DNA from: a virus
Taxonomy: Duplodnaviria; Heunggongvirae; Uroviricota; Caudoviricetes
Length of the DNA: 5,745 nt
IMG/VR virus record: IMGVR_UViG_2534681936_000018
Strand: one strand, 5' to 3'
Shown here in pieces: positions 717 through 2,301 of this stretch. The position numbers and the translations under genes are program-made. The notes beneath the pieces were generated by a model. The model ran no database searches. It was not told where the DNA came from and was given only the letters and a program-made list of their open reading frames with translations. The stretch's first letter is position 1; every line of letters begins with the position of its first letter.

Positions 717-986
717 CTATTTCATTCCGCCAATATTTTCCCACGTCCCGTCAGCACGCAGGATTTGCAGCGGTCTTACCACGCACTGTATCTGCTTTTT
801 ATCCGCATCCAGTATCACCACCTGCGTGATTACCCTGGCCTGCTCCGGAATAATGCCATTCTCATCTGACTCCAGGATGTCTGCCGGCCCCAGTCGCAGT
901 TGTACTGTAAGCGACTGCCCGTGTTCACGGCCATCATGCTTTCCGCAACCGCACAGACGCTGCATAAGTTTTTTTAGTATGTTCAT
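717..986 (-). CDS. Small hypothetical protein (89 aa) resembling the C-terminal domain of the upstream tail fibre; translationally coupled to it
   Basis: ATG at 986-984 follows the tail fibre stop (990-988, TGA) by one nucleotide, with AGGAG a few nt upstream (minus-strand ...acAGGAGaaTGAcATGaac...). Stop is TAG at 719-717. Product MNILKKLMQRLCGCGKHDGREHGQSLTVQLRLGPADILESDENGIIPEQ... aligns with the tail fibre C-terminus QIRFRLGPASIIETNSNGWFPGTDGALITGLTFLDPKDATQVQGLFQHLQVRFGDGPWQDV. The longer ORF-track version (717..1118) overlaps the tail fibre gene in another frame and is probably not the real start. Confidence 0.5.
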   Translation of the reverse strand: MNILKKLMQRLCGCGKHDGREHGQSLTVQLRLGPADILESDENGIIPEQARVITQVVILDADKKQIQCVVRPLQILRADGTWENIGGMK

Positions 987-987
987 G

Positions 988-2301
988 TCATTCTCCTGTT
1001 CTGCCTGTATCACTGCCCACTTCATCCAGCCCCTTAACATCCTGCCACGGCCCGTCACCAAACCTGACCTGCAAATGCTGAAACAGCCCCTGAACCTGTG
1101 TGGCATCTTTGGGGTCAAGAAAGGTCAGTCCGGTGATGAGCGCACCATCTGTACCCGGGAACCAGCCATTGCTGTTTGTCTCAATAATGCTCGCCGGCCC
1201 CAGACGAAAACGGATTTGTGTCTCCCCCGGGTCGCCCTTCGGTCCCTGAGGTCCGGTTGCCCCCACCGGGCCAGCCGCACCTGTTTCTCCTTTCGGTCCC
1301 TGTGGGCCTGCCGGGCCTGCCGCACCGGTATCTCCCTTTGGACCCTGTGGACCTGCATTTCCCGTCAGACCGGTCTCTCCCCGCTCTCCCCTGTCACCTT
1401 TCGGCCCCTGCGGGCCTGCCGGACCAGCATCACCTGCCGGTCCCCGTTCGCCGGTTGCCCCGACAGGGCCGGTGTCACCGCGCTCTCCCTTATCACGCTT
1501 CGGCCCCTGAGGACCCGCGGGCCCCTGTTCCCCCTTTGGCCCGGGAGGTCCCACCACGGTGGGGATTCGGTTAACGGCCTCTTCCGCCGCTATCCTGCTT
1601 TGTTCCGCTGACTGTGCGCTTTCTGCTGACTCCCGGGCTTTTTCTGTTGCGGTCGTTGCATCCCTGGCTGCATTACCGGCTGCACTTTCTGCCGTCTTTC
1701 TTGACAATTCAGCTTCTGCTGCACTTTGTGATGACTCACTGGCTTTTTGAGCGGCCGCAGAAGCCGAGGACGAGGACGCATCCTCTGACTGCTTTGCTGA
1801 GGCTGCACTTTCTGCCGCCTGCCGGGCTGACTCCGATGCCTCCCCTGCTGAAGTGTCAGCATTTGCAGCGCTCTCTTCTGCCTGACTGGCTGATATGCCG
1901 GCATTCCTCGCTGACGTCTCCGCCTCTCCGGCATTCTTCTTCGCCTCTTCAGCGTGACGCGCCACCTCTTCCACCATCAGTTCAAAACGTCGCAATGCCT
2001 CCGGACGGGCATCATCCTCCGTCATGGCACCGAGAAAATCATTCAGCGTACCGGATTGAGAATCTTCATACACGGTGATGGTCCCGGCATGTGACGGCGG
2101 GAATCCCTCCACCAACAGAATAACGCTGTACTGACCGTACTCAACGTCCATGCTGTAACGCCCGGCTTCATCCGGATTTTCTGAGGCCAGCGTGTTCACC
2201 ACCACAGTGGTACTGTTACGTTTTGCTTTCAGCTGGATTGTGCAGTTCTGTACCGGTTTTCCTGTGCCGTCTTTCAGTACACCTGAAATCTTTACTGCCA
2301 T
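988..2301 (-). CDS. stf: Side tail fibre protein: lambda Stf-like N-terminal domain, Ala/Ser/Glu-rich low-complexity segment, collagen-like Gly-X-Y region, distinct C-terminal tip
   Basis: Likely start is ATG at 2301-2299 (MAVKISGVLKDGTGKPVQNCTIQLKAKRNSTTVVVNT..., which matches the lambda Stf N-terminus as I recall it), preceded by GGGGTG. The ORF track begins 2 codons earlier at a GTG (2307). Stop TGA at 990-988. The product contains ~36 Gly-X-Y triplets and a C-terminus ...DEVGSDTGRTGE that I recall as typical of E. coli prophage tail fibres. Confidence 0.9.
   Translation of the reverse strand: MAVKISGVLKDGTGKPVQNCTIQLKAKRNSTTVVVNTLASENPDEAGRYSMDVEYGQYSVILLVEGFPPSHAGTITVYEDSQSGTLNDFLGAMTEDDARPEALRRFELMVEEVARHAEEAKKNAGEAETSARNAGISASQAEESAANADTSAGEASESARQAAESAASAKQSEDASSSSASAAAQKASESSQSAAEAELSRKTAESAAGNAARDATTATEKARESAESAQSAEQSRIAAEEAVNRIPTVVGPPGPKGEQGPAGPQGPKRDKGERGDTGPVGATGERGPAGDAGPAGPQGPKGDRGERGETGLTGNAGPQGPKGDTGAAGPAGPQGPKGETGAAGPVGATGPQGPKGDPGETQIRFRLGPASIIETNSNGWFPGTDGALITGLTFLDPKDATQVQGLFQHLQVRFGDGPWQDVKGLDEVGSDTGRTGE
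1222..1551 (-). repeat. Collagen-like Gly-X-Y triplet repeat region within the tail fibre gene (GC-rich; the source of many spurious overlapping ORFs)
   Basis: Translated residues ~253-362 of the 439-aa ORF: GPPGPKGEQGPAGPQGPK-RDK-GERGDTGPVGATGERGPAGDAGPAGPQGPKGDRGERGETGLTGNAGPQGPKGDTGAAGPAGPQGPKGETGAAGPVGATGPQGPKGDPGE. There is a single break in register where Arg (CGT, plus-strand 1495-1497) occupies a Gly position. Confidence 0.85.
1573..1959 (-). repeat. Low-complexity Ala/Ser/Glu-rich segment of the tail fibre (probable extended shaft or coiled region)
   Basis: Residues ~117-245: HAEEAKKNAGEAETSARNAGISASQAEESAANADTSAGEASESARQAAESAASAKQSEDASSSSASAAAQKASESSQSAAEAELSRKTAESAAGNAARDATTATEKARESAESAQSAEQSRIAAEEAV. 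Strongly biased composition with recurring SA/AE/ES motifs. Confidence 0.6.

Follow-up and report, generated by a model that had tools for sequence, protein, structure and literature searches.

A conserved, free-standing paralogue of the tail fibre tip encoded directly behind the fibre gene of Shiga toxin- and effector-carrying lambdoid prophages

In phages lambda, Mu and P2, the genes for Tfa, U/U′ and G, respectively, lie directly 3′ of a fibre gene. Here, we describe a small gene in the same place within a 5,745-nucleotide stretch of viral DNA (IMG/VR record IMGVR_UViG_2534681936_000018; "the window" below means this whole stretch), which is the right end of a lambdoid prophage of the type found in enterohaemorrhagic Escherichia coli (EHEC) and O55:H7 strains (Sp14/CP-933U-like). 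The gene is a functional, conserved and translated late gene for an 89-aa free-standing paralogue of the tip of the neighbouring fibre. Its closest described relatives are the orthologues ORF68 (ECs1229) of Sp5, L0122 of 933W and "gp59" of phi24B, which are also 89 aa long, 92% identical to the window protein, and likewise located directly after a fibre ending in a PfC (Phage_fiber_C) domain, with a shared Shine-Dalgarno/stop/start junction. However, the fibre of these podoviruses, which carry Shiga toxin (Stx) 2, is of the type EPclB, whereas in the window a long-tailed lambdoid prophage has the small gene behind EPclA, a shorter fibre. The two settings also differ downstream: in the window, the late genes end with the small gene and type III effector cargo (tccP, espJ) comes next, while in the podoviruses more tail genes follow.

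ORF68 of Sp5 has been described as an 89-aa polypeptide comprising the phage fibre C-terminus domain, and a "reservoir" role has been proposed for it (Mondal et al. 2016, PMC5155283). In the same study, individual in-frame deletion, with primers given in the supplement, placed ORF68 among the non-essential late genes, whereas the fibre gene, ORF67, was essential; the small gene is dispensable for Sp5 growth on K-12. Genome annotation has also picked up the resemblance. In two O55:H7-type chromosomes that match positions 600-2400 of the window with 100% identity, the Prokaryotic Genome Annotation Pipeline (PGAP) names the fibre a "prophage tail fiber N-terminal domain-containing protein" and the small gene product a "phage tail fiber C-terminal domain-containing protein". 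An earlier reading of the letters alone (the sequence-only reading) had noticed the likeness independently of any database; the observation and one of the two interpretations that it offered are thus already known from PGAP and Mondal et al. (2016). Searching the literature on "L0122" and on how side fibres are assembled in O157 prophages brought nothing further, and the structural paper on phi24B calls the biological function of this fibre type unknown (10.64898/2026.04.10.717836).

The fibre itself is better characterized. The gene (988-2301, minus strand; ATG at 2301-2299; a PGAP coding sequence of 1314 nt) encodes a 437-aa side tail fibre of the EPclA type, corresponding to the EPclA collagen-like protein (ECs2717) of Ghosh et al. 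(2012, PMC3368898). It consists, in order, of a phage_tail_N domain (PF08400), an Ala/Ser-rich coiled coil, a collagen triple helix (PF01391) and a PfC domain (PF06820). This fibre PfC, here called type A, is encoded at 1024-1215 on the minus strand (residues 365-428 when counted from a GTG at 2307, or 363-426 from the ATG) and is followed by an acidic 11-residue tail (DEVGSDTGRTGE; 991-1023, minus strand), which is nearly invariant in 70+ loci and whose codons also carry the ribosome-binding site of the small gene. Ghosh et al. (2012, PMC3368898) showed that the fibre PfC (363-426) trimerises alone, as an autonomous trimerisation domain that re-nucleates the collagen helix, and that a collagen-PfC fragment (Col-PfC) refolds spontaneously and immediately after melting. 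Full EPclA expressed alone in BL21 formed trimeric dumbbells, and rEPclA, Col-PfC and PfC all gave stable trimers in E. coli strains without expression of the small open reading frame (ORF). Because EPclA and PfC trimerise in its absence, the small gene is not an obligatory folding factor. At the other end of the fibre, residues 1-94 from the ATG (2019-2301) match the solved 94-residue "Tail fiber protein" chain 9e7m/9mgh (E=1.4e-51); the attachment end therefore has an experimental structure, while the PfC end has none.

The small gene runs on the minus strand from an ATG at 986-984 to a TAG at 719-717 (717-986). Its start lies 1 nt from the fibre stop codon (TGA at 990-988), and a Shine-Dalgarno sequence, AGGAG (993-997, minus strand), sits inside the last fibre codons, 6 nt before the ATG. 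This TGA-C-ATG spacing suggests translational coupling of the two genes. The sequence-only reading had given its observation the span 717-1118; the start at 986 that it named holds, and 1118 marks no more than where the open frame ends upstream, in a TTG-started 133-aa ORF of mechanical origin. The protein falls into two parts. Residues 28-89 (720-905, minus strand) form a PfC domain covering positions 1-64 of the Pfam model and predicted to be all-beta, and residues 1-27 (906-986, minus strand) form a basic N-terminal extension, with a short predicted helix (residues 3-11) and then a low-confidence linker. An alignment including Salmonella and Citrobacter rodentium sequences revealed that the extension motif M-x-I-x-K-K...L-x-G-[CG]-x-K is common to the Salmonella orthologues. 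Over its full length (1-89/89), the protein matches PHROG 576, a family of stand-alone ~89-aa "tail fiber protein" sequences (E=2.2e-59), while searches of PADLOC and NCBIfam with it gave no matches.

Two other readings of the N-terminal part were considered and rejected. Degenerate collagen is contradicted by the lack of a PF01391 match in Pfam, by a DNA repeat search that ties no collagen repeat to residues 1-27, and by the absence of regular Gly-X-Y spacing by eye. A lipoprotein or secreted protein was suggested by lipobox-like L-C-G-C and L-F-G-C motifs, but a hydrophobic h-region and a signal peptide are absent, and the commonest Salmonella allele has the motif cysteine replaced (L-S-G-G).

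The kinship with the fibre tip, as claimed from sequence alone, is borne out at the protein level. BLASTP aligned residues 28-88 of the small protein to fibre residues 365-427 with 23/63 identical positions (37%, against the ~40% estimated earlier by eye; E=8e-12 in a single comparison). Moreover, both proteins match the whole 64-position model of PF06820, for which the curated gathering threshold is 25 bits: the small protein through its C-terminal residues 28-89 (118.9 bits, E=1.2e-34), and the fibre through residues 365-428 (123.8 bits, E=3.5e-36). The small protein thus has in common with the PfC of EPclA and EPclB fibres the full-length domain, the 37% identity to the neighbouring copy and the predicted all-beta fold. 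It differs from them in that the fibre PfC stands on a shaft, while the small protein is shaftless and has its 27-residue basic extension instead. In addition, the fibre copy has two one-residue insertions and an acidic C-terminal tail that are missing from the stand-alone copy.

At the DNA level, by contrast, the alignment proposed in the sequence-only reading as a check for duplication finds no surviving similarity. Codon-aligned identity between the two PfC copies is 54% (46% at third positions), their longest in-register exact match is 11 nt, and neither BLASTN nor a repeat finder joined them. With the DNA-level similarity gone, the paralogy is old and visible in protein only, rather than the product of a recent duplication. 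We conclude from these comparisons that the small gene (type B) goes back to an ancient duplication of the tip of the fibre itself (type A).

How old is indicated by Salmonella enterica, including subsp. salamae, in which a distant stand-alone homologue (~55% identical) is found. In one Salmonella lambdoid prophage (875-8240 of our locus L088, GCA_007019015.2), J is followed by a 100-aa ORF, a 452-aa GDSL lipase and a 468-aa fibre composed of phage_tail_N, Phage_fiber_2 and a type-A-like PfC, without collagen. A 79-aa type-B ORF behind an AGGAGG overlaps this fibre gene by 23 nt, with SopA-like effector cargo downstream; overlaps of the two genes in Salmonella range from 14 to 23 nt. A second Salmonella locus has a 212-aa PfC-ending protein instead of the fibre. 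Stand-alone copies are 49-57% identical between genera, compared to only 28-39% between type A and type B, the N-terminal motif is shared among the stand-alone copies, and the two insertions and the C-terminal tail are restricted to fibre copies. The duplication therefore predates the split of these phage lineages, both copies having been kept while the shaft was exchanged.

The two genes are also inseparable in their distribution. Among phage records, 296 contain the small ORF and 296 the type-A fibre PfC, with an identical breakdown by phage name and, in nearly all of the records listed, two places per record. The small ORF is present in 698/5426 complete E. coli genomes (~13%), at 6817 places (median 11, maximum 15 copies), and 693 E. 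coli genomes have the whole unit of fibre and small ORF; it is a very high-copy and pathotype-restricted phage gene in this species. The prophages concerned are essentially Stx- and effector-carrying lambdoid prophages, with the small ORF behind EPclA fibres in siphoviruses (the window, lambda_2B8, the cdtI phage) and behind EPclB fibres in podoviruses, the short-tailed Stx phages (933W L0121/L0122, Sp5). Beyond E. coli, both E. albertii and C. rodentium have close copies of it. A scan of GTDB species-representative genomes returned only E. albertii and one 725-bp contig labelled Xanthomonas pisi DSM 18956 (NZ_JPLE01000138.1), which bears an E. coli-type small ORF with 92% identity and most likely reflects assembly contamination. 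A profile search of 1.84 billion representative proteins yielded only 87 matches, so the PfC domain family is very narrow. On this evidence, the small gene travels with PfC-ending fibres as a fixed two-gene unit.

We used 80 IMG/VR loci (L002-L081) to examine conservation, with intactness and junction scored over 78. The small ORF was intact, at 89 aa, in 77/78 loci, and the AGGAG/TGA-C-ATG junction (GGAGAATGACATGAA) was kept in 76/78. Across 60 distinct alleles, the proportions of synonymous (pS) and nonsynonymous (pN) differences were 0.11 and 0.016, and the ratio of nonsynonymous to synonymous rates (dN/dS) was 0.13 overall, 0.34 in the N-terminal 27 codons and 0.09 in the PfC part. The fibre PfC, with a dN/dS of 0.22, evolves faster than its small counterpart. 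Variation in the small protein recurs at hot spots, namely residues 19, 23-25, 28, 50 (A/D) and 81 (T/R/V/K). As a separate observation on the same loci, amino-acid polymorphisms in the region from the fibre 3′ end through the small gene lose their linkage disequilibrium within ~100 bp, which indicates a very fine mosaic produced by recombination or gene conversion between the numerous copies of the prophages.

Is the product made? The sequence-only reading had argued from the junction that it is translated, and the conserved ribosome-binding site and start, the dN/dS of 0.13 and virion peptides all agree with this. In the supplementary proteome of a cryo-EM preprint on gradient-purified phi24B virions (10.64898/2026.04.10.717836), the part of the table covered here lists two peptides unique to the small protein, the C-terminal ADGTWENIGGMK and VITQVVILDADKK, both under a custom entry to which the authors gave the label "Spike or just gp59?". 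In that same part of the table, no N-terminal, upstream-extension or junction peptides of the small protein are present. Together, these data speak against a mere remnant of tip swapping, the first interpretation in the sequence-only reading: the gene has retained its own start, ribosome-binding site and conserved N-terminal extension; purifying selection is stronger on its PfC than on the fibre tip (0.09 versus 0.22); the small ORF accompanies a PfC-ending fibre in all 296 phage records having either; and the Salmonella orthologue shows a like arrangement behind a quite different fibre shaft.

The second interpretation, a small protein that caps, assembles or competes with the tip, is the one we prefer, albeit without its chaperone element. 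Our best reading, which we regard as possible rather than probable, is that the small protein is an accessory subunit that trimerises via its PfC fold and docks on the fibre tip, encoded from the gene position of Tfa. By analogy with the fibre PfC, the small protein would form trimers through this fold and then might dock at the distal fibre end, where the PfC-A knob and the acidic tail are located, and serve there as an accessory subunit or cap that is not essential; speculatively, the basic N-terminal extension might contact that acidic tail. In so doing it would fill the gene position, and loosely the role, that Tfa/gp38-type partners have with other fibres. Its effect may be to stabilise or mask the tip, or to add a second binding surface relevant on natural, O-antigen-bearing hosts rather than on K-12. 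A further-reaching version appears doubtful to us, namely a self-derived cap or second adhesin which trimerises, stacks on the EPclA/EPclB PfC knob, replaces Tfa/gp38-type partners and tunes adsorption to natural hosts, throughout the lambdoid and Stx prophages of EHEC, enteropathogenic E. coli (EPEC), E. albertii, C. rodentium and some Salmonella.

Structure prediction and remote homology provide some context for such docking. The AlphaFold2 monomer of the full protein, built on a 21-sequence alignment, has a predicted local distance difference test score (pLDDT) of 76, with a helix at 3-11, a linker at 14-22 (pLDDT <50) and a beta domain at 28-89, whose strands (30-86) form a block with pLDDT 78-89. 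A Foldseek search of the 64-aa domain model against the PDB gave nothing at E ≤ 0.001, and the PDB sequence and profile searches with the small protein produced optineurin coiled-coil matches only, which we dismissed as spurious. In BFVD, most of the top matches with names were phage tail fibres (TM ~0.5 over ~60 residues). A clearer lead came from hhalign, which aligned PfC to an alignment of Mu-S-type C-termini over the last ~58 residues, in terminal register (E=2.4e-5, probability 75%), and gave the identical register for the fibre-type PfC alignment (E=0.005); the motifs RLG, G-x-V-I-T-G, R-P-x-Q and N-G-T-W-x-N are common to both. PfC is thus a probable, though not proven, remote homologue of the distal tip of Mu S/S′ (PDB 8ju3), the tip for which the Tfa proteins U/U′ act as partners. 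Outside the prophages of enterobacteria, just one clear PfC-like relative was seen, a collagen-containing metagenomic representative of 565 aa (P0147). It has four modules of ~70 aa in tandem, each matching PfC in its C-terminal half (VVVLDAD...RADGTWxEIP). Its four modules show that PfC-like knobs can stack in series along a fibre.

Several observations weigh against an accessory subunit on the tip. Virion support amounts to two peptides in one supplementary table, of which a part was covered, and Lom, Bor and a transcription factor were also detected in the phi24B data and treated as contaminants (10.64898/2026.04.10.717836). With ORF68 non-essential and ORF67 essential, the role can only be auxiliary in the laboratory. 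Co-variation between the small protein and the fibre PfC, sought as a proxy for contact, was not seen: polymorphisms of the two are unlinked (cross-gene r2 ≤ 0.17), so that no allele-specific co-adaptation is visible. The higher conservation of the small protein compared to the fibre tip is also unusual for a host-range-determining adhesin. Finally, the models are only moderate (pLDDT 70-76), and four of the five full-protein models are worse.

The comparison with Tfa bears directly on the strongest alternative, a transient chaperone that aids tip folding and trimerisation in the cell and is no virion component. We consider it unlikely, even though the gene lies where, as the sequence-only reading noted, lambda carries tfa. 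It comes directly after the fibre gene, to which it is coupled, exactly at the tfa/U/G position, and it is last in the late operon, before a terminator. The spacer between the genes (1 nt in the window, an overlap in Salmonella) can likewise be compared with Mu S-U, the apparent remote kinship of PfC to the Mu S tip recalls that the folding partner of the latter is the Tfa protein U, and low peptide counts, in the part of the virion table covered, would fit carry-over. However, paralogy ties the small protein to the fibre tip itself, whereas Tfa, U and G have a distinct chaperone fold. A profile comparison with Tfa chaperones, as suggested in the sequence-only reading, found no Tfa family match (Pfam at E ≤ 1, NCBIfam at E ≤ 0.01), PF06820 being the only Pfam match at E ≤ 1. 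Moreover, the fibre folds without the small protein, with EPclA, Col-PfC and PfC trimers stable and Col-PfC refolding spontaneously (Ghosh 2012, PMC3368898), and deletion of ORF68 is tolerated while that of the fibre gene is not (Mondal 2016, PMC5155283). A strict assembly role is thereby contradicted. For Mu, the Tfa protein has been described with a fibre-binding domain and a trimerising domain; the small protein, in the accessory-subunit reading, is possibly retained on the tip.

Less likely again is a free, soluble mimic of the tip, released at lysis to occupy the fibre receptor on debris or neighbouring cells, or acting in some other way off the particle. A stand-alone domain of receptor-tip type made late in infection would suit such a function, as would its being non-essential for plaque formation (Mondal 2016, PMC5155283) and a high conservation that fits a conserved ligand. 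Yet a signal peptide and lipobox are absent, and the cysteine of the lipobox-like motif is not conserved in Salmonella, so that the protein could act extracellularly only after lysis. Its peptides co-purify with gradient-purified virions, as judged from the part of the phi24B table covered, and no defence or exclusion family matches were found with PADLOC.

The reservoir role that Mondal et al. (2016, PMC5155283) suggested for ORF68 of Sp5 would make the small gene a silent or semi-silent store of an alternative tip, to be swapped by recombination into the fibre C-terminus. Rare chimeras among the protein clusters of E. coli assemblies are at first sight in its favour. In one of them (P0066, 95 aa), fibre collagen is joined straight to the small-ORF PfC at GERGPA|DILES; in the other (P0137, 92 aa), the N-terminal half of the small ORF is joined to the C-terminal half of the fibre PfC. 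These clusters are tiny, however (4 member sequences and a single representative, versus 300-1300 members for the intact 89-aa form), and represent either rare microhomology events or assembly artefacts, and no full-length fibre with a type-B tip was seen among the matches inspected (120 of 175 listed; 87). An identity of 54% with a longest match of 11 nt is too low for homologous recombination, and linking repeats are missing. Nor does the locus resemble the tip-switching cassettes of Mu (G) and P1 (C): the two copies are in direct orientation, and the annotation of the neighbourhood includes no invertase. A cassette would need neither the ribosome-binding site, ATG and N-terminal extension that have been kept, nor the strong purifying selection seen on the free-standing product. 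We therefore consider this role improbable.

Least probable is a programmed +1 frameshift or read-through fusion giving a minor, longer fibre with two tandem PfC knobs. In its favour, the small-ORF frame is open for 44-46 codons 5′ of the ATG, where it overlaps the end of the fibre gene, and "Fusion_6159" entries were included by the phi24B authors in the database that they searched (10.64898/2026.04.10.717836; table covered in part). However, the length of this upstream stretch is not conserved: it spans 46 codons in 63 loci but 13 in another 10, and 5 and 1 in Salmonella. It is also unremarkable, the whole-fibre +1 frame having only 11 stops over its 440 codons. A slippery heptamer in the required frame is absent, none having been found by Mondal et al. 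(2016, PMC5155283) either, and there is no conserved overlap of the lambda G/GT type. A junction peptide (e.g. ...WAVIQAEQENDMNILK) is not seen in the part of the phi24B table covered, and a frame shift inside PfC-A would destroy that domain.

The surrounding window is laid out as follows. On the minus strand and in transcription order, J (5745 down to 3033) comes first, then lom (2965-2366), the fibre gene and the small gene, with tccP on the plus strand at 1-591. A terminator-like hairpin (703-677, minus strand) begins 14 nt 3′ of the small-gene stop codon and shows that the late operon ends with the small gene; being palindromic, it also faces the convergent tccP. A second terminator-like hairpin (2339-2318, minus strand) lies between lom and the fibre gene, such that the two genes are bracketed by hairpins at the end of the late operon. 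J is broken when compared to the near-identical O55:H7 record NZ_CP065607.1, appearing as three pieces in the ORF list. The lesions are an extra A at 4252, which shifts the frame, an A-for-G change at 4647, by which the coding strand gains a TAG, and the loss of 1 bp at 5727. With J broken, this prophage copy probably cannot make a tail tip, though its fibre and small gene are intact. The tccP/EspFU gene (EspF repeat, PF04806) encodes 196 aa in the window versus 337 aa in the best-matching genome, where it is ~420 bp longer and has extra repeat copies.

With the paralogy already annotated and published, the gene stands as an ordinary conserved accessory gene of phages. If the small protein does sit on the fibre tip, it would be part of the machinery deciding which bacteria receive Shiga-toxin and type III effector genes, and it would represent an unusual case of a fibre partner that evolved from the fibre itself.

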